Position numbers and translations under genes: made by a program. This document shows positions 15,600-63,417 of a DNA stretch of 64,000 nt, piece by piece; within the stretch, counting starts at the first letter, position 1, and each line of letters opens with the position of its first letter. The stretch covers positions 20,109-84,108 of the forward strand of contig PFAM01000004.1 in the NCBI GenBank assembly GCA_002778705.1. Reading direction: 5' to 3'. The stretch comes from Candidatus Falkowbacteria bacterium CG10_big_fil_rev_8_21_14_0_10_37_14 (GTDB taxonomy: Bacteria > Patescibacteriota > Patescibacteriia > Patescibacteriales > Patescibacteriaceae). Below the pieces are notes generated by a model. It was not told where the DNA came from, did not search any database, and saw nothing but the letters and a program-made list of their open reading frames with translations.

Positions 15600-15611
15600 T
15601 TTTAAAGAGGT

Positions 15612-16076: not shown

Positions 16077-16150
16077 AATTTAATCTTAGTTGGTTATAAT
16101 TTTTATTAAGTATAGTCTCCAACCTCTTTAAACCATACTCTATTTTTTTA

Positions 16151-16179
16151 ATTTTACAATATTTTTTAAAAACTAGCAA
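16151..16179 (-). promoter_or_regulatory. Candidate promoter TTGCTA-N17-TAAAAT for pilin paralogue 1
   Basis: Minus strand reads TTGCTAGTTTTTAAAAAATATTGTAAAAT. Confidence 0.4.
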
Positions 16180-16193
16180 AGTTGTTAAAAGTA

Positions 16194-16658: not shown

Positions 16659-16676
16659 ATTGAAGATTATTTATTA

Positions 16677-17168: not shown

Positions 17169-17226
17169 AATGTTAATTAATGATTATTTTGATTACCAAG
17201 AACAAGGTAAAATATTTAATAAGTTT

Positions 17227-17255
17227 ATTATAGCATTTTTTAAAAAACTTACCAA
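17227..17255 (-). promoter_or_regulatory. Candidate promoter TTGGTA-N17-(TGC)TATAAT for pilin paralogues 3 and 2
   Basis: Minus strand reads TTGGTAAGTTTTTTAAAAAATGCTATAAT. Confidence 0.45.
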
Positions 17256-17302
17256 GCCCCTGCTTTGCCCGCATAGTACCCATAATCAACATTATCACTT
17301 CG

Positions 17303-18364: not shown

Positions 18365-18442
18365 GATATTTTTTACCCCAGCCAAGTCTGAGGTTACAAA
18401 AAATAAAATTTGAATAGTTGATTTTAGTTTACCATAATTAAC

Positions 18443-18478
18443 ACAAAAACAAAAATCAGGCACATAATTAGTGCCTGA
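18443..18478 (-). terminator. Rho-independent terminator
   Basis: Minus strand reads UCAGGCAC-UAAUUAU-GUGCCUGA followed by UUUUUGUUUUUG. Confidence 0.65.
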
Positions 18479-37953: not shown

Positions 37954-38982
37954 TCAAGCCTTTTTATCAAGCAATTTTTTAACCTCACGATCAAAGTCAG
38001 ATTCCAGTTGACGATCTTGAGCGATTCTATACTTTTCGTATTCTTTTTCTGCCAAAACCAAAGCTACTTCATGGCTGATTTTTCCATTATCTTGCAAGAT
38101 ATCTCTTTCATTAAACTGCAAAAAGGCATCCAACTTTTTTATCCAATCCTCCATATTCATTATAATACCTTTTTGCGCTTGCGTTTCAGCATATTCAAGA
38201 TACATCATTACAACACGATTTAATCCGTCCAGTTCCTTTTCATCAAGATAATTCTTAGCAATACCAACATCCGTTTTACGAACAGCACCTTGAGGCGCGT
38301 TTTTCCAGCTAGTTAAACCGAGATTGCTTTTTTGGCTATCAATTCTATGATAAATAATTTCTGACGCCGTTTGACCACTAATAGCGAAGTGCAATTTGTT
38401 TTGCACTGTAGCGAAAAAAGTTTTGGTTATTTCTGCATTCGGATTATAATCGGCACTACACTGGGCATAGATATCAGTAATTTTTTGATAAAATCTGCGT
38501 TCGCTGGAACGAATATTTCTAATACGCGCCAACTGCTCTTCAAAATAATCTTGGCCAAAAATATTACTTGGATTTTTCAAGCGCTCATCATCCATAGCAA
38601 AACCTTTAATAATATACTCCTTTAGAATTTGCGTGGCCCAAATTCGAAAACGAGTTGCTTGTGCAGAGTTTACACGATAGCCAACGGAAATAATGGCATC
38701 GAGATTATAAAAATTAACATCTCTCTTAACTTGTCTTTCTCCCTCAATTTGAACTTGTGCAATTTTTGCACTTGTTGCTTTTTTGATTAATTCACTTTCA
38801 GAATAAATGTTTTGCAAATGCTTTGTAACAACACTTCTGTCAACGCCAAACAACTCTCCAATCTTAGCCTGTGTTAGCCAAATAGTTTCATTGTGCAAGA
38901 AAATCTCCACTTTCACTTTGCCGTTTGGCGTGGTGTATAGTAGAAATTCTGTAAAGGCATTATGTTTAATAACTTTTTTCAT
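37954..38982 (-). CDS. RhuM-family protein
   Basis: FLLYTTPNGKVKVEIFLHNETIWLTQAKIGELFGVDRSVVTKHL...FYNLDAIISVGYRVNSAQATRFRIWATQILKEYIIKGF...SSERRFYQKITDIYA. Confidence 0.85.
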   Translation of the reverse strand: MKKVIKHNAFTEFLLYTTPNGKVKVEIFLHNETIWLTQAKIGELFGVDRSVVTKHLQNIYSESELIKKATSAKIAQVQIEGERQVKRDVNFYNLDAIISVGYRVNSAQATRFRIWATQILKEYIIKGFAMDDERLKNPSNIFGQDYFEEQLARIRNIRSSERRFYQKITDIYAQCSADYNPNAEITKTFFATVQNKLHFAISGQTASEIIYHRIDSQKSNLGLTSWKNAPQGAVRKTDVGIAKNYLDEKELDGLNRVVMMYLEYAETQAQKGIIMNMEDWIKKLDAFLQFNERDILQDNGKISHEVALVLAEKEYEKYRIAQDRQLESDFDREVKKLLDKKA

Positions 38983-40516: not shown

Positions 40517-40858
40517 TTATAAACTAAACTTCTTTTCATCACAACTTCTAGTTATCTTAGCAAAAATTAATACTCTTTCATGGGTTTCTTGCTAATATTT
40601 ACGACACATTTCAGAACAAGTCGGGTCAGCTTTCGATAACATTTGCAACCAATACTTTGTTTCATTAGCTTCTTTCAAACAAATTTTTATTTTGTGATAA
40701 AAATCTTTTTTACTTTCCGCTTGATTAGCTTCCATATAATTAGCGCCAATGCTCGTAGCTGATCTTATTAATTGAGATACTAACGGCCGACTAATTTCAT
40801 CCTTTTTAACCTTGTGACATAAAGTTATCACACATTCTCCATAATCAGCAACTCTTTT
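40517..40858 (-). pseudogene. Four-helix-bundle protein gene remnant (no ATG, in-frame TAG at a Trp position)
   Basis: KRVADYGECVITLCHKVKKDEISRPLVSQLIRSATSIGANYMEANQAESKKDFYHKIKICLKEANETKYWLQML...CRKY*QETHERVLIFAKIT.... This is colinear with the 31.6-kb copy (CRKLWQEAHELTLIFSSII). The TAG is at 40592-40594. Confidence 0.7.
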
Positions 40859-42987: not shown

Positions 42988-43089
42988 CTATCTATATTGT
43001 GTAATAAAGGTATTTTAGAATATCTTTGACAAAAAGTCCAATAAAAAACTGCCCAAAAATGGACAGTCGATTAGTAATAAAAAGCTTTA

Positions 43090-43632
43090 CTAGAAGCAAT
43101 ATCGGCCACAACCATCGGCAATATCACCAGTGCCACAATATGGCACACAAAAGAAGACTTCCAACTCCCGATTAGTGCCCTGGAAAGAGCCACGAGAATT
43201 AAGAGTTACTTGATTAGTCATAACTCCTGATGTCGGGAAAAAAAACTTAACACTATATTTAGGTAAATTATCATTGCCAAATAACTTGACAATACTCGCT
43301 GCTTCATTGCCAGCTGCTGGATTTGCATCCTTACACTCTGGTGGTAAATTTGGTATTAAAAAATATTTGGTATCAGGGATTCTACACGTAAATAAATCTT
43401 TATCACTATTACCATGGCCATAAAGCTTAAACTGTAAAGCCGACCACTCTACGCCAGCCTCTGCGGCATAAAAAGCTTTAAGCGAAGCTCCTTCAGCACG
43501 CTGTCTTTGTAAGCCGGAGGTAATAATATCAGTAGCAATCATGGCCATCGCCATCATGCCAAAGAGCAAAAATAGCGTGGTTAGAAGGGCTGAACCGTGG
43601 CGGATGGATAATCTCATATTAAAATTGTTCAA
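43090..43632 (-). CDS. PilX-like minor pilin (module A, position 4)
   Basis: RHGSALLTTLFLLFGMMAMAMIA... and FYAAEAGVE, a PilX_N-type N-terminus. Confidence 0.65.
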   Translation of the reverse strand: MNNFNMRLSIRHGSALLTTLFLLFGMMAMAMIATDIITSGLQRQRAEGASLKAFYAAEAGVEWSALQFKLYGHGNSDKDLFTCRIPDTKYFLIPNLPPECKDANPAAGNEAASIVKLFGNDNLPKYSVKFFFPTSGVMTNQVTLNSRGSFQGTNRELEVFFCVPYCGTGDIADGCGRYCF

Positions 43633-44299
43633 TATTACGCGCGGTCACAAAATTATAATAATCCACTATTGGCGTGTCCCAAAGCTGACTATTTAATTTC
43701 AAATAAAAAGCTACAGACGGCGGTTTACGAGTTCGATCGCCGAGAGCTGTATAATTTATAAAATCGGTCACTTCAAAATTTAATAGCTCTACACCTAAAT
43801 TGATCGGGGTTACCCACGCCTGTCTTAAAGGACGATTAGAATTAGAAGAGTCACAAAGCGAAAGATTATTAGTTATAGGTAAACATCTTTCAACTTTTAA
43901 TCTACTGAGATTATTATTTTGACTATCTGTTTCTAAAAAATAACGAACGCATTCGCCAGAAGAATTAATAAAAACTAAATCGGTATTAGATCCGTTTGTG
44001 TATTGGCAATAATAATTATTATTAAAATTTTGACCAACGCACTTACTGGCTTGATTATCTACAAAACTACCGCAACCGCTATCATCGTAATTTGGCTTAG
44101 CGGTTCTAATTTCTCTAGACATGGATTCAAATAAAAACTCGGCGTGGTCTTGCACGGCCTGTTTATAAACCAATTCACGACTAACCCGTAAAATGCTCAT
44201 AAAAGACTCGATGGCAATTAACATCACTACCGAAAAAACAGCCAACGCAATAGTTAGCTCGATTAAGGTTATGGCTTTAAATTTAATACTTTTGCGCAT
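43619..44299 (-). CDS. Minor pilin, PilW/GspJ-like (module A, position 3)
   Basis: KFKAITLIELTIALAVFSVVMLIAIESF prepilin-type N-terminus. It overlaps both neighbours. Confidence 0.65.
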   Translation of the reverse strand: MRKSIKFKAITLIELTIALAVFSVVMLIAIESFMSILRVSRELVYKQAVQDHAEFLFESMSREIRTAKPNYDDSGCGSFVDNQASKCVGQNFNNNYYCQYTNGSNTDLVFINSSGECVRYFLETDSQNNNLSRLKVERCLPITNNLSLCDSSNSNRPLRQAWVTPINLGVELLNFEVTDFINYTALGDRTRKPPSVAFYLKLNSQLWDTPIVDYYNFVTARNIEQF

Positions 44300-44972
44300 A
44301 ATCGGTTAAAAGAGTGTTTAAAATAAAATATTTATCACTACCTCGCTCATTCCAATAAACAATGGAACGGACTTCTAGCGAATCATCTTCGGCGTTGTTA
44401 GCTGTACTGTTATCTCGATAAGTGGTTTCTATGACGCGATGAAACTTAGTTGGAGTGCAACCCGCCTGCGGTAAAACCAGATTTATGCTATCGGTTGTGC
44501 CGGCTTGGCTATAGTAAAAATTGTTATTTTCGATTTCACACAAATACACCAAGGTTTTTTTATCTTTTACATAATCATTAGTATTTTCAGAGGGCGTAAA
44601 TCCGAAAGTGTCTGAATTTTTATACCAAACAACTATGTTTTGTCTATTGGAGTAGATATCACCAATTTTAATATTTTTATCTAATAAAAACATAGCACTG
44701 GTACCGTCGGTGTGGTCAGAGTCATTGGACAAACTATACGCAAAATCCTTGTTAGCTTGCCAGTTTTCATTACGAAGATAGCGCACCAACTCGATGCCCT
44801 CTTGTGCTACCACTCTAGACAAAAAGCTGTCACGGCTAGCTAAACGGACAACGATAGTCTGCTTAACTAGGGCCATAATACCCATAAAAGCCGTAGTTAC
44901 TATAAAAGTGACTATCAGTATTTCTATCAATGAAAAGGCTTTTAATTTAATCATATTAGCGTTCAACATCAA
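44283..44972 (-). CDS. Minor pilin, PilV/GspI-like (module A, position 2)
   Basis: KAFSLIEILIVTFIVTTAFMGIMAL...AQEGIELVRYLRNEN. Confidence 0.65.
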   Translation of the reverse strand: MMLNANMIKLKAFSLIEILIVTFIVTTAFMGIMALVKQTIVVRLASRDSFLSRVVAQEGIELVRYLRNENWQANKDFAYSLSNDSDHTDGTSAMFLLDKNIKIGDIYSNRQNIVVWYKNSDTFGFTPSENTNDYVKDKKTLVYLCEIENNNFYYSQAGTTDSINLVLPQAGCTPTKFHRVIETTYRDNSTANNAEDDSLEVRSIVYWNERGSDKYFILNTLLTDYAQKY

Positions 44973-45531
44973 TCAAACCGAAAAAGTTAAGGGAGACTAC
45001 TTTTTCAGATTGATTAAAACTATCTTTTAGAGTGATGTGTAAGGTGTCGCAAAAATTGTTAGCTACTGGGACCTCTGTCGTAGTGTTATTATTCCTAGTT
45101 ATTTTTACTAAAGGGTTTGGTGGAGTAAAGCTGATGGCAGCTGAATCTATTTCAACAGGCTCATCTGTACCGATTGTGCAAACAATCTTAGAAATGGTAA
45201 TTTGTTTTGGGAATTGAATAGTTTTATACAATTCGTCTGTTTCATATGTTTCATTAGTGTTTGTATCTACCCATAATTTATATTCGGAGCTATTATTTTT
45301 ATCTATATACAAACCCCAAATATTATTGCCAGCAACATCTTTCCAGGCCTTAGACGAGGCGGCATAGGCTTGCATTAAACGACCGCTACCAGCTAAACTT
45401 TGGGCGGTGTAAATAATTTCTATTCGCTTCGCAGAGTTACGATAGGCCACGGAAGACAAAGTTAAAACCGTTACTATCATACTGACAGTAACCATTAACT
45501 CTAAAAATGTAAAAGCTTTATTATGACGCAT
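44956..45531 (-). CDS. Minor pilin, FimT/GspH-like (module A, position 1)
   Basis: MRHNKAFTFLELMVTVSMIVTVLTLSSVAY. Confidence 0.65.
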   Translation of the reverse strand: MRHNKAFTFLELMVTVSMIVTVLTLSSVAYRNSAKRIEIIYTAQSLAGSGRLMQAYAASSKAWKDVAGNNIWGLYIDKNNSSEYKLWVDTNTNETYETDELYKTIQFPKQITISKIVCTIGTDEPVEIDSAAISFTPPNPLVKITRNNNTTTEVPVANNFCDTLHITLKDSFNQSEKVVSLNFFGLIDVER

Positions 45532-45533
45532 AT

Positions 45534-47081
45534 TTATTCTACACGGACTTCTTGATAACCACTGGCATCGGCACAGGCTTTGACAGGAGTGCTTTCAGCC
45601 CAACTACTGACCGTAAAATAACAGGTACCATTTCCATTATCACACAGCTGATTAAGAGTGCAGCCCGTTACTCCATTAGACGAGCACATAGTTGTCGAAC
45701 TATATACGCGGACACGATATTTAAAATAAATAAATCTATCGTTGTTAGCTAGAGTATCAGTAAAATATTCAACAGCAGTCTGGCCTCTACCTTGCCAACC
45801 CTCTAGACACACGCCGTTAACATCCGCTTTACAACGCTGAACATCAAAACCACCGGTATTAACCGGAAAATTACTCGGATCCGCATTAAAGTACGTCCAA
45901 GTTAAATAGACCTTGGCTTCGCTTGGGGCATCTTTATCGGAACAAACGGTTCTTAAATTTAAGCTAGTTATTTCCAAGACACTGGTTTGACGAGAAAAAA
46001 CATCGCTAGAAACACAGGCCAAAATATTACAGCTATTAACCGCATAATGATAGGTATAACCGACATCCAATCCGTTGCCATTATTACTGTCGGTAAAAGT
46101 GTAGCTCTGAAAACCTGTTTTACTACTAATCAATCCAAAATCATTTGTAGCATTGCCAGAAACCTCATTACAAGAGCCGATACAATTACTCCAATCTCCT
46201 GAAGAACAAGAAATACTACTACCTTGGCATGTCCATACAGCAGGATCGCCTCCGTCTGACACACAAGCTGTTACACAATCTTTTTTGAGTGTACAAGCGT
46301 TACCGTTGTTAGATCCACCAACACACTTTCTATTTTTTCTGTAAACTTGATAATAATTAGCTCCAAAAGCCGGAGACCAAGAAATTTTTATCTTATGACT
46401 CTCATCATCTTTAACTAATTCAGTACTGGGAATAGTTAGATCAGGACGACCATTAACCACATAACCCACTCCCTTAAAGCTTAGCCAACCCAAACCACAG
46501 CCTTTTTCGGTGTTATCAGAGAACTTACAACCACTCCAAGCGTAGCCACTTAATTTACCCCTTTGTGGATCAGAATAGACGCCCCAATCTTCAGGAAGTC
46601 CTTCTCCAGAATCAATAGCATAAACATAATAACTGGGATCATTATTCAAACTAATCCAACCTTCGCTACCCATAGATAAAACATAAGCACAGCCACTTAA
46701 TTCTCTGGTCGCTTTATTAAACTTTGCCCAAGTACTACCAACTCCGCAATTTGGATTAAGACTACCGGTATAGTTAAAGAAAGCAATCCAGCCGACATTA
46801 TCCGACCAAGCCCAAGAATCTGTAGCAAAATCACAAGTATCATTAAAGCAATTGCTTACCGCCACACCATAACCTTTACCAGTATTCCACATCCTTATCC
46901 AACCAATAGTATCAGTCCAGACATACCCTCGCAGAGGAGCGGAGGTCGTGCTGTCAGGTAGGGCGGCATTAACCGAATGAAGATTATTCCCCCACAGCCT
47001 CCAAACAGTCAATGACAAAAGGCCTAATACAGATATTAGGCACAGGGAAAAAATAAGTTTATGATGTTTTTGCGGTAGCAT
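45534..47081 (-). CDS. Secreted Trp/Cys-rich repeat protein with FN3-like C-terminal domains
   Basis: Signal anchor. Repeated G(Y/W)xW(S/T)DxxGWIxF motif (GYVWTDTIGWIRMW, SWAWSDNVGWIAFF, EGWISLNN, GYAWSG...GLGWLSFKG). FN3-like KISWSPAFGANYYQVYRK. Confidence 0.65.
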   Translation of the reverse strand: MLPQKHHKLIFSLCLISVLGLLSLTVWRLWGNNLHSVNAALPDSTTSAPLRGYVWTDTIGWIRMWNTGKGYGVAVSNCFNDTCDFATDSWAWSDNVGWIAFFNYTGSLNPNCGVGSTWAKFNKATRELSGCAYVLSMGSEGWISLNNDPSYYVYAIDSGEGLPEDWGVYSDPQRGKLSGYAWSGCKFSDNTEKGCGLGWLSFKGVGYVVNGRPDLTIPSTELVKDDESHKIKISWSPAFGANYYQVYRKNRKCVGGSNNGNACTLKKDCVTACVSDGGDPAVWTCQGSSISCSSGDWSNCIGSCNEVSGNATNDFGLISSKTGFQSYTFTDSNNGNGLDVGYTYHYAVNSCNILACVSSDVFSRQTSVLEITSLNLRTVCSDKDAPSEAKVYLTWTYFNADPSNFPVNTGGFDVQRCKADVNGVCLEGWQGRGQTAVEYFTDTLANNDRFIYFKYRVRVYSSTTMCSSNGVTGCTLNQLCDNGNGTCYFTVSSWAESTPVKACADASGYQEVRVE

Positions 47082-47100
47082 ATGGTGGATTAGTTTAGAT

Positions 47101-47275
47101 TCCCTTCCCTCACCAATGAGTACATTGGCTCGCCGGGAATGACAGAATAAGCTAGGAATAACAGCATAAGCCGGTGGTCTCGGAAATGACAGCTTTTTAT
47201 GTCACCCCCGGCATTTTGTACTCAAAATGGGAAGGGGGTTTCGGAAATGACACCATAAGCTAGAAGTGACACGAT
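47101..47275. other. GC-richer intergenic element with four degenerate ~21-nt repeat units and nested helices (candidate structured RNA or operator array)
   Basis: Repeat units: gggaatgacagaataagctag (47135-47155), ggaataacagcataagccgg (47155-47174), cggaaatgacagc (47181-47193), cggaaatgacaccataagctag (47242-47263). Possible pairings: cccttccc (47102-47109) with gggaaggg (47229-47236), and hairpins at 47113-47128, 47187-47204 and 47213-47228. Confidence 0.5.
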
Positions 47276-47282
47276 GTAAAAA

Positions 47283-47537
47283 TTACTGTCCAGCCTCGGT
47301 AGCTGGAGTTTCGGTGGCTCTTGGTTGATTTTGTGAGGCAGCTTGAATTTGTTGGTTTAAAAAGGATTGGATATTGGCTAAATTATTGGCATTATTTTGA
47401 ATAGCTGCTTGTAAATTTGATAATTTTTCCGCCTGATAAAAATTAACAGTAATTAAAGTAATTATTAAAGCGGTGGCTAGTAATAAAATCAGACCGACGG
47501 AAATAACTTGAGTTTTATTGTCTTTATTGATGGGCAT
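47283..47537 (-). CDS. Small bitopic protein (N-terminal TM, Gln/Asn-rich coiled segment)
   Basis: 84-aa ORF: VISVGLILLLATALIITLITV, then LQAAIQNNANNLANIQSFLNQQIQ. Confidence 0.5.
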   Translation of the reverse strand: MPINKDNKTQVISVGLILLLATALIITLITVNFYQAEKLSNLQAAIQNNANNLANIQSFLNQQIQAASQNQPRATETPATEAGQ

Positions 47538-47551
47538 AAATATAATTTAAC

Positions 47552-47740
47552 TTATTTAGTTTTGGGGGCGGTAACTTCTTTCAGCCAATCGCTGATTTGT
47601 GTGATGTCGGCAGTTTGCTTGTCGTTTATTGCTTCAGTTATTTTAATACTGTTAGACAACTGCCAATTAATTAAACTGAACCAACCTAAGAAAACACCAC
47701 AAATAACTAGCGCAGCCGAGATATAATATTGTTTAGACAT
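47552..47740 (-). CDS. Small bitopic protein
   Basis: 62-aa ORF with an N-terminal helix ISAALVICGVFLGWFSLI. Confidence 0.45.
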   Translation of the reverse strand: MSKQYYISAALVICGVFLGWFSLINWQLSNSIKITEAINDKQTADITQISDWLKEVTAPKTK

Positions 47741-47749
47741 AATTTTAAA

Positions 47750-49774
47750 TTAATTACAATAACCCATAGCAGTACAGCAAGCAGCTAAAGAATCGGTCTT
47801 ACATGCTGCCTCGGGTAAAACTCTTTCACAAACTAAAATTCCACCAAAAAAATGAATAGACTTCCAACCGGTAGCAGTTTGAACGCAGCTAGACGACGGT
47901 ATAGCTAGCGCTTTATAATTACTAATTTTTATGCCAGCCTTAATTTCCAGGCGACCATTAACTCTTAAATAAGGGTCACTAGAATCTGAAAATTGTCCGT
48001 AAAGTAAAGCGTTATTAGCGGAAGGACTGCTTGTCGTCCTAGCTTTATTGTCAACAATAAATAAACTGGTGCTACTACTAATATCATAACCAGAATAATA
48101 GCCTAAAAAAACATTAGAAGAGCCTATATTAGCATCGCCAGAATTAGTTCCTAAATAAGTATTATTAGATCCATCCTTCGAAGCCTTACCACTGTCATTA
48201 CCAACAAAAACGTTACCTGTACCTATATTACTGTAGCCGGCTTGAACACCTATAAATACGGAACCAGAAGTAGTAGACATTGCTCCCGCTAAAGATCCTA
48301 TGGCAGTATTAAAATTTTGGTTAAAGGTACCAGAGTTATCACCAGATAAAGCTTTGTAACCAATGGCCGTATTACCAGACGATACAGTGTGATATCTTAG
48401 AGATTCATTACCAATAGCAACCGTGTTAGCACTATTAGTAGCAGTTTGTAAAGAATAATTACCAATAATTACAGTATTGGCACTAGCCGATCCACTGGTG
48501 TTTAATACTGTGCCAGCTGAAAAACCAATAGCAATGGCTCCCTTAATGCGAGTTGAACTAGACAGAGCCCATGAACCAATAGCAATGGATTCGCTGCCTC
48601 CACCTAATTCTGATAAAGCATTAAAGCCTAGAGCAACTACATTACCAGCAAAACTCGAACTTGTATAAGGAGTCCCCTTTCCAATAAATAAATTAGTACC
48701 AAATTTATTACTCATAAAAGGGACGCCACCAAAATAAATTACGCCTGTAGTTTTAAATAGAGGGTTACTCTCATCAAGAGTGTTGTCAACAACATCCAAT
48801 GAGCCATAAAGTTTTAACTGGCTATTAATATCATCCCAAAAGAAATTAGCATTATTTTCAGCTAACAAACCATTTAAACCAATAAAGAGTACAGAACCAG
48901 TAGCCATACCAGGTTTGATGTTAAATGAGTTTGAACACTTTAGTGTATGATTATTGCCAGGGTCAAATCCCACAGATACTTCCCCTAGAGGACAAAGCTC
49001 AGGCTTGTGAGTAACCTGATTCCAGGGAATACTGCCGTTTACTATATGTCCAAGAGCATCAACTGTAAAATTTGGACTATCGTTTTGATCGACGATTCTT
49101 AAAGGAGGATAAGCTGAACCGGTCGTAGAACTTGAATGTATTAACAAACCTCCCTTCCCAGCATCATCTCTAATGGTTAATCCGTTCTTAGTAGAGTTTT
49201 TGTTAGTAATAAACAATTTAGATGATATTGTGCTATTAAAATAGCCCAGCTTTAAATAGCTTTCATTGCCATTGTTAAGCCACTGGAGGTATGTGGAATT
49301 ACCAGAAATAGATCCAGGATTAACTCCTTGCTGAAATAAAAGAGCACCATTTCCAGCATTAACTCCAGCTGAAGGACTGCCAAAAATTAAATCAAGATCA
49401 TTACCGCTACTAGTGTTAGAGACAATTAAGGCCTGACCAATAGACCCTTTTAGTTTTGGTAATTTGATATTATAAGAGTCGCCAACACCTAACGACTTAT
49501 CTATTGAAACATTTCTGCCCTCAGGATCGTTAATAGAATTGGTAAAAATTAAAGCGTTGTTTCTGATATAGAGTGGGCTAGTGTCCAAACCTAGGGGTCC
49601 GCCTTTGGTTTGGAGAAGACTACCGACATTAATTGGAGTGTCTCTATTTCCAGATTCACCAGGAGGAAGCATAGAGCTATCAGGCTCTGTCCAAGTGGCA
49701 GCATAAGTAACAGACACTGAGGCCAAAATGGCAATCAATAAAAGAGAAAGATATTTTAAAATATGTTTAGTCAT
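47750..49774 (-). CDS. Secreted adhesin/tail-fibre-like protein with YadA-head-like N(T/V)xxG repeats
   Basis: Signal peptide ...ASVSVTYAA. A long run of repeats: SANTVIIGNYSL, SANTVAIGNESL, SGNTAIGYKAL, NTAIGSLAG, GNVFVGNDSG, NNTYLGTNSG, SNVFLGYYSG. Then ALLYGQF...LRVNGRLEI and a Cys-rich C-terminus. Confidence 0.65.
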   Translation of the reverse strand: MTKHILKYLSLLLIAILASVSVTYAATWTEPDSSMLPPGESGNRDTPINVGSLLQTKGGPLGLDTSPLYIRNNALIFTNSINDPEGRNVSIDKSLGVGDSYNIKLPKLKGSIGQALIVSNTSSGNDLDLIFGSPSAGVNAGNGALLFQQGVNPGSISGNSTYLQWLNNGNESYLKLGYFNSTISSKLFITNKNSTKNGLTIRDDAGKGGLLIHSSSTTGSAYPPLRIVDQNDSPNFTVDALGHIVNGSIPWNQVTHKPELCPLGEVSVGFDPGNNHTLKCSNSFNIKPGMATGSVLFIGLNGLLAENNANFFWDDINSQLKLYGSLDVVDNTLDESNPLFKTTGVIYFGGVPFMSNKFGTNLFIGKGTPYTSSSFAGNVVALGFNALSELGGGSESIAIGSWALSSSTRIKGAIAIGFSAGTVLNTSGSASANTVIIGNYSLQTATNSANTVAIGNESLRYHTVSSGNTAIGYKALSGDNSGTFNQNFNTAIGSLAGAMSTTSGSVFIGVQAGYSNIGTGNVFVGNDSGKASKDGSNNTYLGTNSGDANIGSSNVFLGYYSGYDISSSTSLFIVDNKARTTSSPSANNALLYGQFSDSSDPYLRVNGRLEIKAGIKISNYKALAIPSSSCVQTATGWKSIHFFGGILVCERVLPEAACKTDSLAACCTAMGYCN

Positions 49775-49775
49775 A

Positions 49776-50201
49776 TTATTTAACTGATTTTAACAAAACA
49801 GCTTCATCAGTATTAATCTTTTGCTCTGTTAATAGTTTATCTATCGTAAAAGACTTCTTATCAGACAAAAATTTCTTTTCTTCATCGGTATATTTACGAT
49901 TTGCCGCCTCTGTTCTTATTTTAGCCATAATTGCCTCGGTTTCAGCGCTTACTAAAACTTCTAATTCCGCCAAACTTCTGACAGTTGACTGGTTAGTTAC
50001 TGGCGTATTGGGACTAGCCATATCAGAACCTGAAATAATCGGTTGATTATCAAGAGGAGGATTGGTATTTGTTTGACTAGTTGGTGAGCTGGTTGGCAAT
50101 TGAACAATTTCTGCAGTATCAGCTGAATACAACAAAACAAAAACGCCAACAATCAGCACTAAAGAAACCACGATAACCACTAACCATTTTTGTGTATTCA
50201 T
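49776..50201 (-). CDS. Bitopic membrane protein
   Basis: 141-aa ORF with an N-terminal helix WLVVIVVSLVLIVGVFVLL, a Pro/Thr-rich linker and a helical C-terminus. Confidence 0.5.
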   Translation of the reverse strand: MNTQKWLVVIVVSLVLIVGVFVLLYSADTAEIVQLPTSSPTSQTNTNPPLDNQPIISGSDMASPNTPVTNQSTVRSLAELEVLVSAETEAIMAKIRTEAANRKYTDEEKKFLSDKKSFTIDKLLTEQKINTDEAVLLKSVK

Positions 50202-50275
50202 ATTACATCTTAAATATCTGTCTTTATAAACTTTTAACTTATTCTATTATATCATAATCTTTATAAGTAGCCAAG

Positions 50276-50839
50276 CTAGTCAACTAAACAATGGTTATCA
50301 AGACATGTGTAATTTGTTGGGCAACTTTGCACATTAGTACAAACTCCTCCACAACCATCAGCGCCAGTATTAGGCACTCCATTATAAACCCCTGTATTAC
50401 AAGACATAAAACAATTAGGTAAACAAGTAACAATATCACCAGGAACAGCCGTATTAGCCCCTGCACCAACATCACTAGTTTTATTACCCAAACAAAAACT
50501 TAAGCTATAAGAAGCACCATTTTCATCTTGGCTATAAGTATAAGTGGTAGTGGCCGTGCAACCGTTATCCACAGGCTGTGGATTAAAAGGCACATGAGGT
50601 AAATAAGTTGTTAAACTATAGCTTAGAGGACTCCCAGCGGTAATGGTGGTTGGATACATACCAACATCACGATAAAAACTTTCCAGAGCACCTTGAATTA
50701 AACGAATATCGGTAATTCGCTTACCATCACGATTAGCCATACGCAAAGATGATAAAGTTTTAACCGTCAAGGCGGTTAAAATAGACATGATTACAATAGC
50801 TAAAAGTAGCTCTAAAATAGTAAAACCTGTTTTTTTCAT
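50276..50839 (-). CDS. Type IV pilin-like protein with a Cys-rich C-terminal extension
   Basis: MKKTGFTILELLLAIVIMSILTALTV...RDGKRITDIRLIQGALESFYRD. The C-terminus has many Cys residues (CLPNCFMSCNTG...CGGVCTNVQSCPTNYTCLDNHC). Confidence 0.8.
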   Translation of the reverse strand: MKKTGFTILELLLAIVIMSILTALTVKTLSSLRMANRDGKRITDIRLIQGALESFYRDVGMYPTTITAGSPLSYSLTTYLPHVPFNPQPVDNGCTATTTYTYSQDENGASYSLSFCLGNKTSDVGAGANTAVPGDIVTCLPNCFMSCNTGVYNGVPNTGADGCGGVCTNVQSCPTNYTCLDNHCLVD

Positions 50840-50844
50840 AAAAC

Positions 50845-51309
50845 TTAATAAGAAACAGTACCAGCGGGCATAGCCCGATTATTGCCAGCGGATAAATCTC
50901 CCGCATCATCACCTAAACAAAAATCTAAATGATAGGAAGTGCCGTTAGCGTCATTGGAATAAACATAAGCAGCATCGCTTGGACAAGAGCCGTCGGCTGG
51001 CTGGGGATAAGTCGGCAATTCTTCCATATAAGTTATGGATCCTGAAACCAAAGAATTGCCAGCCACCAAATTTGCAGGATAGACACCTTGATCACGATAA
51101 TAAGCGCGCAAAGCTGATTGCATTTGTGTTACATGAATAATGCGGGTAGAGTCACGAGCACCAGAACGCATCCAAGAAAAAACCCGAAAGACCATGGTGG
51201 CCAATAAAGCCAGAATGGCGATGACAGTTAACATTTCCAGTAATGAAAAACCTGAGCTTATCGAAAGGTTAGTGCGATTATTTAACATACGAAAATTAAT
51301 CTTGGACAC
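50845..51309 (-). CDS. Type IV pilin-like protein
   Basis: ...SSGFSLLEMLTVIAILALLATMVF...RDSTRIIHVTQMQSALRAYYRD. Confidence 0.8.
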   Translation of the reverse strand: MSKINFRMLNNRTNLSISSGFSLLEMLTVIAILALLATMVFRVFSWMRSGARDSTRIIHVTQMQSALRAYYRDQGVYPANLVAGNSLVSGSITYMEELPTYPQPADGSCPSDAAYVYSNDANGTSYHLDFCLGDDAGDLSAGNNRAMPAGTVSY

Positions 51310-52375
51310 AACGGACGCTGTAATAATTATTAACAGTAGCAGATGTTTGAGTTACTACGGGACTGTCGTCAGATATTTTAATATAATTATTATCAGAGGT
51401 CCATAAACGATTCTCGGTATTTCTGCCACCCGTAACAGCTGAAGGTAAAATTTCATGATAGCCGGCGCCCACAGCATTAAACTGCGCCCAGCCAGTAGCA
51501 TTAGCAGGCGTGGTCCAATAAGTATTATCTGGCATTTGATTAGTTCTTAGTTTGTAGCCAGGGTCTGTGCCTAAAAAGGTATTGAAAGCTGTAAACTCTT
51601 CTGTAGTTGGCACGTGCCAACCACTAGGGCAAAGACTGGCAAGCATAGTTCCTTTGTATAAAAGACCGACATCATTAACTGTTCCAGAGTCTTCGCAAGG
51701 TGCACTAGAACAAACTCCAGTACTAGCAGCGTATAAATAATGGCTTGTGTCCATATCTCCAGCTGTATAAGTTAAACTAGCTGTGGTTTTTAAGTTGCTG
51801 GCAAACCAACATTCCCCAGAATCTTGCTGACCATTAGGGATAATGTCATACCAAACTAAATTGTAATTATTTCCCGATAAGTCAACAGCACTATTTCCAC
51901 CAGTTGGGCAGGTAGGACCAGGTGATTGCAAATAGCTGATATTAGCATCAATTTTAATCGTGGTGGCACCGACCGCACAACGACCAGTAGTACAACTGCC
52001 AATAGACCTTAAAGTCATCGAATTGCCAGATGGCAAACCGCCATACTCTACAGAATAAGTACAACTATTATCAAGACTGATGACAGTGCCTGCTTCACCA
52101 GGTTGTCCACAAGTTCCCAAATTGGGGATTAGATATTGCCCCGGCTGGCAGTTAGTAGCGTAATTGCCAAGCTGACCGTAAACCGCTTGTCGTAAACCAG
52201 TCTCGGCCGCCGAATAAGCAGGGATATCACAAGAACCAACACCATAAGCTCTTAAGCGAATAATGACCGAGGTCATCATAAACAAGGCTGCCAACATAAC
52301 GGCCGACATAGCAAAAACCGTGGAGCCTAGCATACTACCCTGATGACTCGAATGTAACCAAGTAAAATGTTTCAT
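51296..52375 (-). CDS. PilX-like minor pilin fused to a FISUMP (Fibrobacter succinogenes major paralogous, TIGR02145-type) domain (module B, position 4)
   Basis: N-terminus HQGSMLGSTVFAMSAVMLAALFMM...YSAAETGLRQ. C-terminus CWFASNL...GLLYKG...CPSGWHVPTTEEFTAFNTFLG...FNAVGAGY...RLWTS...YYSVRCVQD. Confidence 0.7.
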   Translation of the reverse strand: MKHFTWLHSSHQGSMLGSTVFAMSAVMLAALFMMTSVIIRLRAYGVGSCDIPAYSAAETGLRQAVYGQLGNYATNCQPGQYLIPNLGTCGQPGEAGTVISLDNSCTYSVEYGGLPSGNSMTLRSIGSCTTGRCAVGATTIKIDANISYLQSPGPTCPTGGNSAVDLSGNNYNLVWYDIIPNGQQDSGECWFASNLKTTASLTYTAGDMDTSHYLYAASTGVCSSAPCEDSGTVNDVGLLYKGTMLASLCPSGWHVPTTEEFTAFNTFLGTDPGYKLRTNQMPDNTYWTTPANATGWAQFNAVGAGYHEILPSAVTGGRNTENRLWTSDNNYIKISDDSPVVTQTSATVNNYYSVRCVQD

Positions 52376-52402
52376 AAAAAAATTATTAATAAAATCATTA
52401 TA

Positions 52403-52948
52403 TCATTGTAAAGGCGTATTGGTAATAGCTGTCTGATAATAAACCGATTCATTAGCATTTTTAGTAGAAGTAGCTGATAAACGAATGGCCACGGTGCTAC
52501 TATTACTAGTTAGGGTATCAAAATATATTTTGTTAATAAAAATATCTGCCGAAGTAATGGTGTAGACAGAAGCTAAACGCTGAGCAATTAAACGACCATT
52601 AGTAACATAATATTGGACGCAAACATCTTTATTATCCAACACACAAAGTTTGTTTTTAATACCAGGGGCGACACTATTAACACAAAAATAAGTATCAGAA
52701 GAGCAAGAACAATAAGCGGAACACTCAGCGGCGATAAACTTTTTAGATTTCTTAGTTTCATCAGTTAAGACACCTAAAGCATAACGCAAATCGCCTTCCA
52801 GATTTTGCTGATTGGTAATTTTATCTTGGACATCCATCACCCGTAAAAATACTCTAGTAATTGCCAGGGCAAGTATAGCAAATAAGCTGACAGCAACTAT
52901 TAGTTCAATCAGCGTTAAAGCTTGGTGATGATTTTTAATTGGTGTCAT
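52403..52948 (-). CDS. Minor pilin, PilW/GspJ-like (module B, position 3)
   Basis: HHQALTLIELIVAVSLFAILALAITRVF. Confidence 0.65.
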   Translation of the reverse strand: MTPIKNHHQALTLIELIVAVSLFAILALAITRVFLRVMDVQDKITNQQNLEGDLRYALGVLTDETKKSKKFIAAECSAYCSCSSDTYFCVNSVAPGIKNKLCVLDNKDVCVQYYVTNGRLIAQRLASVYTITSADIFINKIYFDTLTSNSSTVAIRLSATSTKNANESVYYQTAITNTPLQ

Positions 52949-53552
52949 ATAACCTGGATAATACTTGACTAGTGTGTCCCTTACCTCGCTCCTCCCAATA
53001 AACTTTCACAATAACATTGATAAATTTTTTAGAATCTGGGGCATTAGGATCATAACTAACTTCAAAATAACGATAAAAAGGTGTATCAGAACCGGAAGTT
53101 CGTTGATAAAATGATGGAGTGGTGGAAGCAATGTCAGCACTTAATTTAAGGCGAGCGGTGCTAGTAGCCGGAAAAAGGCTGGCAAGAGCAGGCGTGATCT
53201 GAGTACTAGAAACAGTGGCTCGATTAGAGGTTGGCACATTAGTCCAATCAAAAACTACAATATGAGCACAAGGACCGGTATCACAAGGAGCCGTTGTAGT
53301 ACTAATTAAACCACTAGCGAAACTGATACTACCAACTACATTTTCATTACGCATGGCTTCGGCCAATTCCACACCCTCCCGTAACAACCCTTGGGCGATA
53401 AAATCGTTTTTAATAACATTTTCCATTTGTAAACTGCGAGTGGTTAAACTCATCACACCGACAAAAACCACTGCCACCATAGCCACAATTAAAATGACCT
53501 CTATTAAAGAGAAGGCGAAGACAGGTTTTGATTTGGAATTGATTAAAGGCAC
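52935..53552 (-). CDS. Minor pilin, PilV/GspI-like (module B, position 2), GTG start
   Basis: KPVFAFSLIEVILIVAMVAVVFVGVMSL...REGVELAEAMRNEN, homologous to the 44283-44972 product. Confidence 0.65.
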   Translation of the reverse strand: MPLINSKSKPVFAFSLIEVILIVAMVAVVFVGVMSLTTRSLQMENVIKNDFIAQGLLREGVELAEAMRNENVVGSISFASGLISTTTAPCDTGPCAHIVVFDWTNVPTSNRATVSSTQITPALASLFPATSTARLKLSADIASTTPSFYQRTSGSDTPFYRYFEVSYDPNAPDSKKFINVIVKVYWEERGKGHTSQVLSRLYDTN

Positions 53553-53702
53553 AAAAACAATTTTTAATTTTGTAATTTTTAATTTTTAAATAAACAAATC
53601 TAATTTTTAATTTTTTAAAACACGAGAGCAATATCTTGGTATTTATTTTGAAAATTGAAACATTATTTTGAAATTAAAAATTTGAAATTTGAAATTTTTT
53701 CC
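53553..53702. repeat. Low-complexity AT-rich intergenic element related to the TTGGAAAT/TTTGAAAT repeat family
   Basis: aatttttaattttgtaatttttaatttttaaataaacaa...cttggtatttattttgaaaattgaaac...ttgaaattaaaaatttgaaatttgaaatttttt. Its layout resembles copies A and B. The 18-mer taatttttaaataaacaa recurs at 57415-57432. Confidence 0.45.
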
Positions 53703-54938
53703 CTATGGTGTTGTTGTAGCGCTAATTAAGCCAGAGGGCCAGATCCGAAAAGACTTAGGCGTATAACCAGGATAACCTTTATTAGAACCACCTCGATTAA
53801 CAGTTATGATGGCCGAATCTTCAGTGGCACTGGCGCCATTGATTCTCATTAAATAATCGGCTGGCGAAAAGAAAACATCAATAGTGCTGGTGATACTGGT
53901 TGTGGCTCCGATACTATTAACGCTATAAAACTTATCAAAAACGGGACCAGGCGGTAGTTTAACCTCTTGATATTTTTCTTCATCAGCACTGTAAAGTTTG
54001 GTGGGCGGAGTAAAAGATTGATACCAAGGCGCCCAGTCTTTCACAAAACGAATTTCATCGACGCTGCCAGCAAATGTAGCACTGCCAATATTTAAACTGG
54101 AGCCTGAATCATAATACATTTCGGTAGTAGTACCTATTTGTAAAACATCTTTGGCTTTACCGTCTACAAAAATTTTAATAAACTGCCGATCCCTAACGGC
54201 AGCAACATGATGCCAGACATTGGTAGCTAAAGTAGTAGTAGAAGATGAGCCAATTTCATACCAGACGCTACCCGAAGTTCTAAAACCAAAACGAGCTGTA
54301 GTTGTTGTTCCGGCAAGATTCACGCCGACATAAAAGCTATTTGACTTTTCGGCAATTTTTTGTAAACTGCCACTAAAACTTGTCATTTTAAACCAAAAAT
54401 CTATCGCAAAACTACTGGTGCCGGTATTAAAGTCTTGGTGATTAGGAATAGATAAATAATCGCTAGCATCAAAAGTCCAGTGATCACCACCAACACCACT
54501 AGGAGCACCGCCCCCGCTAGTGTTAATAGGAGTAGCGTTTTTAGTCACAGTTTTAGTGGTAGTTGCGGTGCTAGACACCGAACTGTCAAAAAAAGTTGTG
54601 CCAGAAACCACTTCTGTCCCGTGGATTAAAAGCTTGGTTGGGAAATCATAGTTTTGACTGCCATTTAAATCACCATAGGTAATATATTTACCACCGGGAC
54701 GATTAAAATAGACTCCCCAACCATAAGGTGCTTTATCAGCCGAAAGCATCCGACCGTTTAACGCAAAGTTTTGAGCAACACGGACTTGCTCACGCATTTT
54801 ATCGCTGACCGCCACAATCTCCCCGCTATCGTTAATCTCATTAAAGTTAGCGTAAACCACCACCGAAATAATCACGATGATTGAGATAGTGATGGCAATT
54901 TCAATAAGGGTAAAAGCTTGTTTGGCGGTTTTTAGCAT
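53703..54938 (-). CDS. Minor pilin, FimT/GspH-like, with a LamG/concanavalin-like C-terminal domain (module B, position 1)
   Basis: MLKTAKQAFTLIEIAITISIIVIISVVV. The C-terminal part has WHHVAAVRDRQFIKIFVDGK and GSVDEIRFVK, typical of Laminin_G_3 domains. Confidence 0.7.
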   Translation of the reverse strand: MLKTAKQAFTLIEIAITISIIVIISVVVYANFNEINDSGEIVAVSDKMREQVRVAQNFALNGRMLSADKAPYGWGVYFNRPGGKYITYGDLNGSQNYDFPTKLLIHGTEVVSGTTFFDSSVSSTATTTKTVTKNATPINTSGGGAPSGVGGDHWTFDASDYLSIPNHQDFNTGTSSFAIDFWFKMTSFSGSLQKIAEKSNSFYVGVNLAGTTTTARFGFRTSGSVWYEIGSSSTTTLATNVWHHVAAVRDRQFIKIFVDGKAKDVLQIGTTTEMYYDSGSSLNIGSATFAGSVDEIRFVKDWAPWYQSFTPPTKLYSADEEKYQEVKLPPGPVFDKFYSVNSIGATTSITSTIDVFFSPADYLMRINGASATEDSAIITVNRGGSNKGYPGYTPKSFRIWPSGLISATTTP

Positions 54939-54941
54939 AAA

Positions 54942-56219
54942 TTATTTGGCTTGAAGTAATTCTAAAGCCTTGTTGAGCTGAGGATCGTTTTTATCTTTAG
55001 CATCTTTCTCAGTAAACTCTATTTTAATATCCGGTTCAATACCCTCTTTATCAATGGCGCGACCTTTCGGGGTTAACCATTTGGCTGAAGTAACTTTCAT
55101 AGAGCTTCCACCAGGCAAAGACATTAAAGATTGAACAGAGCCTTTGCCAAAAGTTTTAGCACCGACTAATTTAGCCAAGCCATAGTCTTGTAAAGCCCCA
55201 GCCACAATCTCAGCGGCTGAAGCTGAGCCTTGATTAACTAAAACTACCGTTGGGATACTAGCTAAAGTAGCAGGACCTGAAGATTTATGCGGATCTTGTT
55301 CTTTGTTGGCATAGCGTTCAATCACAATTGTATTATTTTTAATCCAATAACCGCCCATCTTAACAGCGGAAAAAAGATAACCGCCCGGATTGTTACGCAA
55401 GTCTAACACAATGCCTTGAGCCGACTTGGTAATTGCCTCATTAACAGCGGTAGCAAATAAACTGTCAGTATCATCATTAAAATTAGAAACTCGAATAATT
55501 ATATTGTCACCTTTCCACTCGGTTTTGACACTTTTAATTTGAATAACAGCACGAGTAATTTTAATTTCTAAAGTATCAGCTGCACCTTCCCGCAAAATTG
55601 TTAAAGCAACGACCGTACCTTTAGGTCCACGAATTTTTTTAACCGCCTCGGTTACTGAAAAACCGGTGGTTAATTCTCCGTTAATTTTAATAATTTTATC
55701 TCCAGCTTTTAGCCCAGCTTTTTGTGCCGGCATTTCATCTAGTGGAGTGATGACCGTAATAATTTCATCCTTTAAGCCGATTTCGGCGCCAATACCTTCA
55801 AAAGACCCTGACATATCATCATTAAACTCTTTAGTTGATGATGGTGTCATAAAAACAGTATAAGGATCTTTAGTTGAGGCTACTAGACCTTCTAAAGCAC
55901 CGTAAAAAATATCTTGATCAGTCAACTGTTCGTGGTCAACATAAGTGCTTCGTAAATTATCCCAAACCTGCCAAAAAAGCTGTTCATCAAAAGCCGAAGA
56001 TTTGTCAGAATTAGTTATGATTCCGGTTTGATTTTTAAGGTTTTTATCACCTTGTGGTTGACCTAAAACCCAACCTGCAAAAAAGGCTGTTATAACTGCT
56101 GTAACAGCTAAAATACCTAAAATTAACTCTCTGGGATTACCTACACCACGCTTCTTTGAAAGACGGTCTTTTTCAGAAGACACATCTTTAACAGAAGCTT
56201 TCTTTTTCTTGTGAATCAT
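54942..56219 (-). CDS. S41-family carboxy-terminal processing protease with a PDZ domain
   Basis: PDZ GLKAGDKIIKING, LDLRNNPGG, and catalytic region NQGSASAAEI. ATG 56219 is the preferred start. Confidence 0.85.
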   Translation of the reverse strand: MIHKKKKASVKDVSSEKDRLSKKRGVGNPRELILGILAVTAVITAFFAGWVLGQPQGDKNLKNQTGIITNSDKSSAFDEQLFWQVWDNLRSTYVDHEQLTDQDIFYGALEGLVASTKDPYTVFMTPSSTKEFNDDMSGSFEGIGAEIGLKDEIITVITPLDEMPAQKAGLKAGDKIIKINGELTTGFSVTEAVKKIRGPKGTVVALTILREGAADTLEIKITRAVIQIKSVKTEWKGDNIIIRVSNFNDDTDSLFATAVNEAITKSAQGIVLDLRNNPGGYLFSAVKMGGYWIKNNTIVIERYANKEQDPHKSSGPATLASIPTVVLVNQGSASAAEIVAGALQDYGLAKLVGAKTFGKGSVQSLMSLPGGSSMKVTSAKWLTPKGRAIDKEGIEPDIKIEFTEKDAKDKNDPQLNKALELLQAK

Positions 56220-56319
56220 AATAAAAATAAATAATTTTTTGATAAGCCTATTATAACATATTTTAGCAATTGGCAAAACTGTACTTACTTGCTAAGATAA
56301 AAACAATTAAATATCAATT

Positions 56320-63326: not shown

Positions 63327-63417
63327 AGTAAATTGATTTTACCACACATCCCTAAAAAACAAAAGCCAGCCTTACAGCCGGTTCGGTGGTTATTTTTAAA
63401 ATTTATCTTGTGTGCAG

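Follow-up and report, generated by a model that had tools for sequence, protein, structure and literature searches.

Does one gene array of an uncultivated bacterium encode two different pilus heads? The question is raised by a stretch of 64,000 nucleotides (hereafter the window) from Candidatus Falkowbacteria bacterium CG10_big_fil_rev_8_21_14_0_10_37_14, an uncultivated groundwater member of the Patescibacteria (assembly GCA_002778705.1, contig PFAM01000004.1, positions 20,109 to 84,108 of the forward strand). Few Patescibacteria have been cultivated, and the structures most likely to serve them in finding and holding host cells are their pili. An earlier reading of the nucleotides alone (termed here the original prediction) had noticed two parallel four-gene sets of minor pilins in the window, one plain and one decorated with lectin-like domains, and had proposed that they form two tip complexes of different binding specificity. 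We find that the two sets match position by position and are kept together in four diverged lineages. The four-gene cassette can be recognised as a unit in nearly all Patescibacteria pilus loci, and one Falkowbacteria clade appears to have long kept it in duplicate, with one copy specialised by add-on domains. Whether the two cassettes build two pilus heads on shared machinery, one of them with add-on binding domains, is in our judgement an evenly balanced matter.

Two four-gene cassettes in one array

The array runs along the minus strand from 54938 to 43090 and comprises 15 co-directional open reading frames (ORFs) in the order B1, B2, B3, B4, P1, P2, S1, R, S2, S3, W, A1, A2, A3, A4; all of them lie where the original prediction had placed them and contain the motifs it quoted. 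A four-gene pilin-like cassette stands at each end, B first and A last, and the order in both is a GspH/FimU-like pilin, a GspI/PilV-like pilin, a GspJ/PilW-like pilin, and a PilX_N-type protein without Glu5. Cassette B consists of B1 (411 amino acids (aa); 53703..54938), B2 (205 aa; 52935..53552), B3 (181 aa; 52403..52948), and B4 (359 aa; 51296..52375). Cassette A consists of A1 (191 aa; 44956..45531), A2 (229 aa; 44283..44972), A3 (226 aa; 43619..44299), and A4 (180 aa, or 175 aa according to gene callers; 43090..43632), all on the minus strand.

The first three members of both cassettes have a class III (prepilin) leader and Glu5, and give N_methyl or TIGR02532 matches, with FTLIE, FSLIE, LTLIE, FTFLE, or ITLIE motifs; cleavage is predicted after Ala and before FTLIE in B1, FSLIE in B2, LTLIE in B3, and FTFLE in A1. 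The fourth members instead have a conserved Gly followed by S-x-L (G then SALLT in A4, G then SMLGS in B4) and no Glu5, and B4 is without the canonical N_methyl signature. This Gly is kept in at least 90% of the 19 members of the fourth-position family in its alignment. The AlphaFold2 model of A2 (predicted local distance difference test, pLDDT, 87.4) has a helix at residues 15-72 followed by seven β-strands, which is the layout expected of a pilin; its placement also draws on subfamily orthologues and a neighbour-joining tree. The model of A4 (pLDDT 73.9) has a helix at residues 12-71 and 4 strands.

Position-by-position pairing

Within the cluster, BLASTP pairs A2 with B2 (2e-12), A3 with B3 (3e-6), and A4 with B4 (6.5e-7), whereas A1-B1 is not significant (E = 4). 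In shuffle tests that left out the N-terminal hydrophobic helix, A1-B1 (z = 5.3), A2-B2 (z = 6.4), and A4-B4 (z = 5.5) stand out, while A3-B3 reaches only z = 0.9 outside that helix. We also ran hhalign over all 45 family pairs, with each profile made of the window sequence and one orthologue. The top pair is P1-P2 (99.9%), two pilins from between the cassettes, followed by A2-B2 (98.4%), A1-B1 (97.8%), and A3-B3 (96.7%); A4-B4 obtains 77% over 143 columns and the two are mutual best partners. Taken together, these position-wise matches from three kinds of comparison indicate that the parallel order is real and well beyond what would be expected by chance, in line with the parallel modules originally described.

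Conservation and origin of the doubled array

The 15-gene array is present in the same order, with no gene lost, in four lineages: that of the window, the Falkowbacteria metagenome-assembled genome ELA601 (loci L007, L029, and L034), the Logan contig L044, and L045/L046, where the L045 locus stops inside B1. It is flanked by RmuC and an S41 peptidase on one side and by LigA on the other. GCA_009992115.1 and several groundwater metagenomes contain the cluster in identical form, and partial contigs from further lineages carry B1(LamG)-B2-B3-B4-P1, S3-W-A1-A2, and A1-A2-A3. A scan of metagenomes with P2 found the ELA601 organism again and nothing else. The GC content is 33-41% across the window and the cluster shows no compositional break. 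The comparison across related genomes that had been suggested thus shows that all four lineages, diverged as they are, keep both cassettes intact and unchanged in order, with neither of them pseudogenised or absent.

LigA is 57-69% identical to that of the window across the four lineages. Cluster proteins are 25-56% identical between lineages, compared with 57-72% for the flanking housekeeping genes (A3 orthologues, for example, show 42-45% identity). Such fast evolution could suit a redundant duplicate under neutral drift with no distinct function, but all eight cassette genes are intact in lineages whose LigA proteins have diverged to ~60% identity, A and B each form a monophyletic clade of their own, and the LamG insertion described below is kept in every B1 orthologue; we disfavour drift as scarcely probable. 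In the neighbour-joining tree of the second-position pilins, calculated with no bootstrap, A2 and B2 each form a monophyletic group, and the two are sister clades nested among single-cassette Patescibacteria. This topology suggests one old duplication within the clade, both copies of which would have been kept since.

The cassette in other Patescibacteria

An exhaustive HMMER profile search with A2 and B2 gave 4180 representative clusters at E ≤ 1e-3, of which 477 also passed E ≤ 1e-10. Word-indexed searches for homologues of B4 and A2 returned essentially the query itself only. For the locus search we used a six-sequence alignment of the A2 subfamily, as broad PilV-family alignments were too variable for a degenerate pattern. 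We obtained at least 22 cassette loci from species-representative genomes, almost all of them from Patescibacteria (Falkowbacteria, Paceibacterota, Moranbacteria, Komeilibacteria, Peribacteria, Saccharibacteria, and others). Nearly every locus, ~20 among the matches listed, has the order A1-like, A2/B2-like, A3/B3-like, A4-like; in one locus (L011) the J-type gene precedes the I-type gene. Two layouts are usual: two to four small pilins followed by a prepilin peptidase (PilD) and the cassette, or pilins followed by the cassette and PilM-N-O. The other Patescibacteria loci listed carry one such cassette each, next to PilD or PilMNO, and the frequency of doubled arrays is a lower bound.

Decoration of cassette B

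Two members of cassette B carry domains that are absent from their counterparts. In B1, which has an N_methyl match, Pfam places a Laminin_G_3 (LamG) domain at residues 157-299 (E 1.5e-16), and in B4 a Fib_succ_major (FISUMP) domain at residues 187-358 (E 1.2e-15), at the C-terminus. No extra Pfam domain was found on A1-A4, A4 bearing a short Cys-rich tail, so that the contrast originally drawn between a bare and a decorated module holds; the term lectin-like is supported for LamG by its Pfam clan label and is putative for FISUMP. Searches of PDB sequences and profiles with B1 and the FISUMP domain gave nothing useful. In the alignment of the first-position (H) family, the B1 pilin domain matches A1 and its relatives on either side of LamG, in its N-terminal as well as its C-terminal half, indicating an insertion rather than a C-terminal graft.

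B1 and B4 are thus modular pilins in the published sense of a pilin module joined to a domain that is not pilus-specific. They resemble PilB (vWA) and PilC (ConA-like lectin) of Streptococcus sanguinis, in which a binding module is also grafted on a pilin (Raynaud et al. 2021, PMC8179133). In that survey, PF13385 (LamG) pilins are among the commonest modular architectures, with many examples in Patescibacteria including Falkowbacteria (PMC8179133). In the published modular pilins, a short linker leads from the pilin part to a C-terminal module; B4 has this arrangement but B1 does not, as its LamG interrupts the pilin domain. The FISUMP domain we take to be IPR011871. This entry is listed as a domain of unknown function (PMC8179133).

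The decoration is not the same in all lineages. LamG is found on all six B1 orthologues, partial contigs included. FISUMP is found on B4 in two of the four lineages, the window and L044, so that the decoration is not fixed; in L045 B4 has 208 aa and no extra Pfam domain, and in ELA601 it corresponds to two tandem genes, again without extra Pfam domains. Elsewhere in the Patescibacteria, add-ons occur in the fourth position as Laminin_G_3 (L012) or BNR/sortilin repeats (L013), and a first-position pilin bears FISUMP (L025; 1.5e-21). There are also long second-position pilins, one of 858 aa with DUF4215/MopE motifs (L021) and one of 726 aa with weak GH43-like/β-propeller matches (L024). This evidence suggests that the same add-on modules move between cassette positions across lineages.

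The kind of cassette

Sub-threshold NCBIfam matches are consistent with position: A1 with ComGD (0.0012) and GspH (0.054), B2 with GspI (0.0027), B3 with GspJ (1.3e-5, next to N_methyl at 3e-6), and A4 with GspK (0.018). A1 also has an N_methyl match, and A3 matches N_methyl at threshold and ComGE and GspJ below it. At the family level, PF14341 (PilX_N) is matched by 6 of the 19 fourth-position members, the best at 1.1e-6, with A4 and B4 themselves scoring below E 0.1, and PF12019 (GspH) is weakly matched by 2 of the 20 first-position members (0.006). The third-position (J) family matched N_methyl and no other Pfam entry.

The gene order, with three Glu5 pilins followed by one without Glu5, is that of GspH-I-J-K of the type II secretion system (T2SS), FimU-PilVWX of Pseudomonas aeruginosa, and ComGD-GG of Gram-positive bacteria, and the cassettes of relatives, like these systems, adjoin the prepilin peptidase and assembly genes. 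The similarity, in contrast, lies mostly in the N-terminal helix, and the A2 and A4 models have no significant match among solved structures. From gene order and family matches, we therefore treat the cassette as one that probably works like these core minor-pilin sets, rather than as a demonstrated member of any curated family.

Some of these matches point towards competence. Patescibacteria are described as naturally competent and as lacking nucleotide synthesis, and one could imagine a division of labour in which A is a DNA-uptake pseudopilus of the competence type (Com/T2SS-like) and B an adhesive pilus. The weak matches of A1 to ComGD and of A3 to ComGE would fit, as would the top Foldseek neighbours of A4, the Thermus thermophilus competence pilins ComZ (E 0.15, probability 0.89, TM-score 0.37) and PilA2 (E 0.15-0.2), although neither is significant. 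ComZ is a minor pilin with a large β-solenoid module implicated in DNA binding (PMC8179133); compared with these tip pilins (PDB 6qvi, 6qvf), A4 is without the large insert. All of the family matches are below threshold and mostly in the N-terminal helix, ComEA and ComEC were not found nearby, and the linkage of cassette A to W, a large surface protein, is foreign to Com systems. Moreover, T4P-2 pilin mutants of the Patescibacterium TM7x, where T4P stands for type IV pilus, transformed at wild-type rates (PMC11623550). We consider this division of labour very unlikely.

Genes between the cassettes

As originally described, the region between the cassettes holds two pilins, three small proteins with a single membrane segment, a repeat protein of 674 aa, and a Trp/Cys-rich protein of 515 aa. 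P1 (154 aa, or 147 aa according to gene callers; 50845..51309, minus strand) is a GspG-like small pilin, with N_methyl at 5.9e-5, weak T2SSG, and sub-threshold GspG at 1.1e-7. P2 (187 aa; 50276..50839, minus strand) is also GspG-like, with N_methyl and sub-threshold GspG matches and a Cys-rich C-terminal tail (…DGCGGVC…). The two are 40% identical, and both are present in all four lineages as old paralogues, with orthologue identities of 40-56% for P1 and 43-52% for P2.

The large proteins are R and W. R (47750..49774, minus strand) is predicted to be secreted or anchored, and is Ser/Gly/Asn-rich with a hydrophobic N-terminal segment, a region of short-period repeats, and a Cys-rich C-terminus; its orthologues of 644-903 aa have the same position in all four lineages. 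It contains five copies of an N-x-x-[ILV]-G repeat, compared with 0.16 expected, and has no match in Pfam, NCBIfam, or PDB sequences. The label YadA-head-like given to it before was an impression taken from this repeat, which no profile or PDB sequence match backs. We regard R as a candidate non-pilin partner or adhesin. W (45534..47081, minus strand) is N-terminally anchored and contains 25 Cys and 19 Trp; it has four (A)WS.N.GWI.F-type Trp repeats, followed by Cys-rich regions with faint FN3 similarity. It is always directly upstream of A1, the W-A1-A2 linkage being found in the window, ELA601, L044, L045, and the partial locus L035.

The small proteins, all on the minus strand, are S1 (141 aa, one N-terminal membrane segment; 49776..50201), S2 (62 aa; 47552..47740), and S3 (84 aa; 47283..47537), the latter two being predicted single-pass membrane proteins; all three assignments come from hydropathy. 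S1 has orthologues in place in ELA601 and L044, S2 has orthologues as well, and S3 adjoins W in ELA601, L044, and L035 by BLASTP; at its position L045 has an 89-aa gene without a BLASTP match to S3. With R, W, S1-S3, and their ELA601 orthologues, Pfam and NCBIfam gave no family other than a weak fn3 match in the ELA601 orthologue of W, and W against PDB gave nothing useful.

A Cys-rich tail of the type C.P.C…DGCG..C… recurs at the C-termini of P2 (50276-50420), A4 (43090-43150), and several orthologues (e.g. at L007 2229-2792 and 11301-11846 in ELA601), one of the two B4-like genes of ELA601 being among them; hhalign aligns the tails of A4 and P2. The tail may form a disulfide knot or bind a metal.

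An S41 C-terminal processing peptidase (54942-56276, minus strand; TIGR00225 prc, 8.6e-102) ends 3 nucleotides (nt) upstream of B1. The same gene precedes B1 in ELA601 and L044, and in contig P0011 as judged by gene size only. The linkage could be functional, e.g. in the processing of Cys-rich tails, or could be mere conserved synteny.

Junctions and expression

Four junctions of the array are overlaps of 14-17 nt (B2/B3, A1/A2, A2/A3, A3/A4). Most of the others are gaps of 1-27 nt; wider ones separate B1 from B2 (150 nt), P2 from S1 (74 nt), and S3 from W (201 nt). In L044, no gap within the array exceeds 56 nt. A terminator-like hairpin with a T-run (43047..43068, minus strand), 22 nt past the A4 stop codon and before LigA, is the probable end of the array. 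The tight or overlapping junctions and the lack of a conserved internal gap argue for co-expression of the two cassettes over a switch between them, and so against their use as alternatives, as had been suggested for the two sets.

Probable co-transcription, with tight junctions and an L044 array free of larger internal gaps, would also be expected if all eight cassette proteins, together with P1 and P2, entered a single enlarged priming/tip complex. Extra minor pilins beyond the core four are found in some species, such as PilE in Pseudomonas and ComP, PilV, and PilX in Neisseria. Paralogues of the same position would, however, compete for one place in a one-start helical tip, and known tip complexes hold one copy per position (PMC8179133, PMC7541494), making such a composite highly improbable.

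The 201-nt intergenic region upstream of W (47082..47282, minus strand) contains three copies of TGTCATTYCCG, identified with a repeat finder, which are 47 and 61 nt apart and are the sole exact copies within the window. It is possible that these repeats are sites for a regulator, or that the gap holds an internal promoter. A terminator-like hairpin is located at 47307-47289, near the S3/W gap. We considered a two-operon structure based on the gap and the three repeats and gave it low weight, since the gap is not kept in L044 and stands before S3 instead in ELA601. The AT-rich spacer between B1 and B2 (53553..53702, minus strand) consists in part of heptamer tandem repeats, with Tandem Repeats Finder arrays at 53559-53589 and 53667-53697 (plus strand, AATTTTT x4.3 and TTTGAAA x4.4); the B1-B2 junction is 7 nt long in ELA601 and 44 nt in L044.

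One machine or two pili

Pilus genes outside the array were present in the window. The original prediction had the array right and its statement that PilB/C/D/T are absent is supported by a Pfam scan of the window ORFs, in which a few ORFs of up to 237 aa were left unscanned, and by tblastn with Patescibacteria PilD/M/N/O. It missed, in contrast, a PilM-like gene (17303-18463, minus strand; PF11104 at 3e-11, TIGR01175 at 1.6e-13) and three tandem PilA-type, i.e. major-pilin-like, genes (15612-16076, 16194-16658, and 16677-17168, minus strand) with 71-78% mutual identity, which together span 15612-18463. This trio differs in class from P1/P2, adjoins PilM without a cassette of its own, and is 26 kb from the array. 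The residue at position -1 of the predicted cleavage site is Gly in P1, P2, and the PilA-type pilins, whereas the six canonical minor pilins that open the two cassettes all have Ala there. We dropped the idea that this Ala marks a separate peptidase because orthologues use Gly, Ala, or Ser interchangeably.

In the reading with two heads on shared machinery, each cassette would give a four-protein complex, assembled in the membrane, that would prime pilin polymerisation by the type IV pilus machine and then cap the extended pilus. A role at the tip is proposed because the core minor pilins of Myxococcus xanthus prime the pilus and stay at its tip (PMC7541494). The B complex would display the concanavalin-A-like LamG domain, looped out of the H-type pilin, and here also FISUMP on the capping PilX-type protein, and would thus be an armed, probably glycan-binding tip. 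The A complex, encoded just after the surface protein W, would be plain, and R and W would be the likely non-pilin partners of the two cassettes, with a PilY1-like role. Each cell could then have two kinds of pilus head. We lean towards a single machine that would use the PilA-type pilins next to PilM (15612-17168), with P1 and P2 as extra low-abundance pilins.

Several results weigh against this reading. None of the cassette members reaches the curated cut-offs of the GspH/I/J/K, PilV, or ComGD-GG models, the matches being mainly to the N-terminal helix. Foldseek searches of the PDB with the A2 and A4 models gave no match at E ≤ 0.001, and a profile search of PDB sequences with the PilV family matched the N-terminal helix only. 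No PilY1/PilC-type domain was detected by Pfam/NCBIfam in any cluster protein, and the proposed partners R and W are positional analogues only, conjectural in that role. In addition, no lineage lacks P1 and P2 between its cassettes, and these two may be the true polymerising subunits, which favours a second fibre.

It is accordingly a real, if lesser, possibility that the cell makes two pili and that each cassette primes and caps its own filament, e.g. B its neighbours of the P1/P2 type and A the PilA-type filament encoded next to PilM. TM7x has thick and thin pili from two T4P systems that share neither major pilin, ATPase, nor minor-pilin set (PMC11623550), and the window contains two unrelated pilin classes. 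The linkage B1-B4-P1(-P2) is found in every lineage and partial contig seen, P1/P2-matching pilins adjoin the cassette in other Patescibacteria, and P1 and P2 in turn go back to an old duplication. On the other side, the 64 kb hold a single PilM and no second machinery, and both cassettes stand with P1/P2 in one co-directional array. Two more P1/P2-type pilins in the window bear a C-terminal LamG, which is more typical of minor than of major pilins, and in M. xanthus several sets can serve one fibre (PMC7541494). We continue to favour two heads on shared machinery, but the common fibre of the original prediction claims too much for a window with two pilin classes, given that the TM7x sets serve two pili (PMC11623550).

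Comparison with other multi-set systems

Three points have already been published, namely multiple minor-pilin sets, modular lectin-bearing pilins, and Patescibacteria PilX-type proteins with accessory domains. Clusters 1-3 of M. xanthus (Treuner-Lange et al. 2020, PMC7541494) are several complete FimU-PilV-PilW-PilX sets in one genome, as here, each with a PF14341 (PilX_N) fourth member and a large non-pilin protein. Several of them are proposed to act with a single pilin and a single machine, and for pilus formation one set out of two is enough, whichever it is (PMC7541494). M. xanthus differs in being a diderm with a secretin and in having its sets spread over three loci that each include a true PilY1, whereas the two sets described here share one array, have no PilY1 homologue, and carry the add-on domains on the pilins themselves.

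The one studied case among Patescibacteria is TM7x, a member of the Saccharibacteria and thus of the same superphylum, whose T4P-1 and T4P-2 also have two paralogous minor-pilin sets, with PilX-type proteins that combine a non-canonical leader and a lectin-like or β-propeller accessory domain (PMC11623550). One of these, PilX2, with its accessory domain and non-canonical leader, is required for host binding (PMC11623550). The TM7x sets are at separate loci, each beside a major pilin and an ATPase of its own, and two filaments result. In the Falkowbacteria array, known from genes alone, the sets are in tandem with shared neighbours, LamG is in the H-type pilin, and FISUMP is on the PilX-type protein. 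As for a major pilin and an ATPase per set, P1/P2 lie between the cassettes, the PilA trio lies elsewhere with PilM, and no ATPase is found in the 64 kb.

What is new is a tandem array of two cassettes that a whole clade shares, an H-type pilin with LamG inside it, and evidence that modules move between positions. These features extend known concepts and overturn none, and they provide a testable protein set for studies of host specificity.

LamG-tailed pilins elsewhere in the window

The two additional P1/P2-type pilin genes that end in a Laminin_G_3 domain are located at 2833-3925 and 62304-63345 (both minus strand) and have 54% mutual identity. In both of them, a frame offset of 1 nt, across a homopolymer, separates the start codon from a prepilin leader and a body that begins with FTLIELL after Gly: a C7 tract in the first (plus-strand G-run 3897-3903) and an A7 tract in the second (63318-63324). 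Removal of one base restores MSNMTHKAPLTRRG followed by FTLIELL… in the first and VVKSIYYKKG followed by FTLIELL… in the second. The sole two G/C runs of at least 7 in the 64 kb are both at the 5' end of the 2833-3925 gene, the second one (3952-3958) being just upstream of a TGCTATAAT box. No variation in homopolymer length was seen in six (C7) and three (A7) assemblies, in a look-up biased to the same frame state. These genes look like phase-variable or slippage-dependent adhesin pilins.

A wider proposal joins these genes to the array as a programmable adhesion repertoire, with one machine and interchangeable heads: an A tip with W, a LamG/FISUMP B tip with R, and LamG-tailed pilins switched at the C7 and A7 tracts, which together would set the host cells available for attachment, with modules (LamG, FISUMP, BNR, and others) shuffled between positions as the host range evolves. 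We consider this rather unlikely; if it is true, the heads would set which host cells an uncultivated episymbiont can reach.

Other observations in the window

The second pilus locus, with PilM and the PilA-type trio, extends over 13284-18463 and also includes a secreted protein of 718 aa with a bacterial TSP3 repeat (13284-15440, minus strand). A RhuM-family gene is found at 37954-38982 (minus strand; PF13310, 1.8e-112), and fragments resembling HepT toxins occur near the LamG-tailed pilin genes, which suggests mobile or defence-type islands nearby. In L045, genes of 116 and 118 aa (11438-11788 and 12408-12764) lie on either side of A4. Both belong to the PF05635 "23S rRNA intervening sequence protein"/Avd-like four-helix bundles, with a weak match to PF22296 (bAvd). 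A 79-aa ORF of the window (40592-40831, minus strand), between LigA and GatC, resembles these Avd-like genes as judged by eye only.

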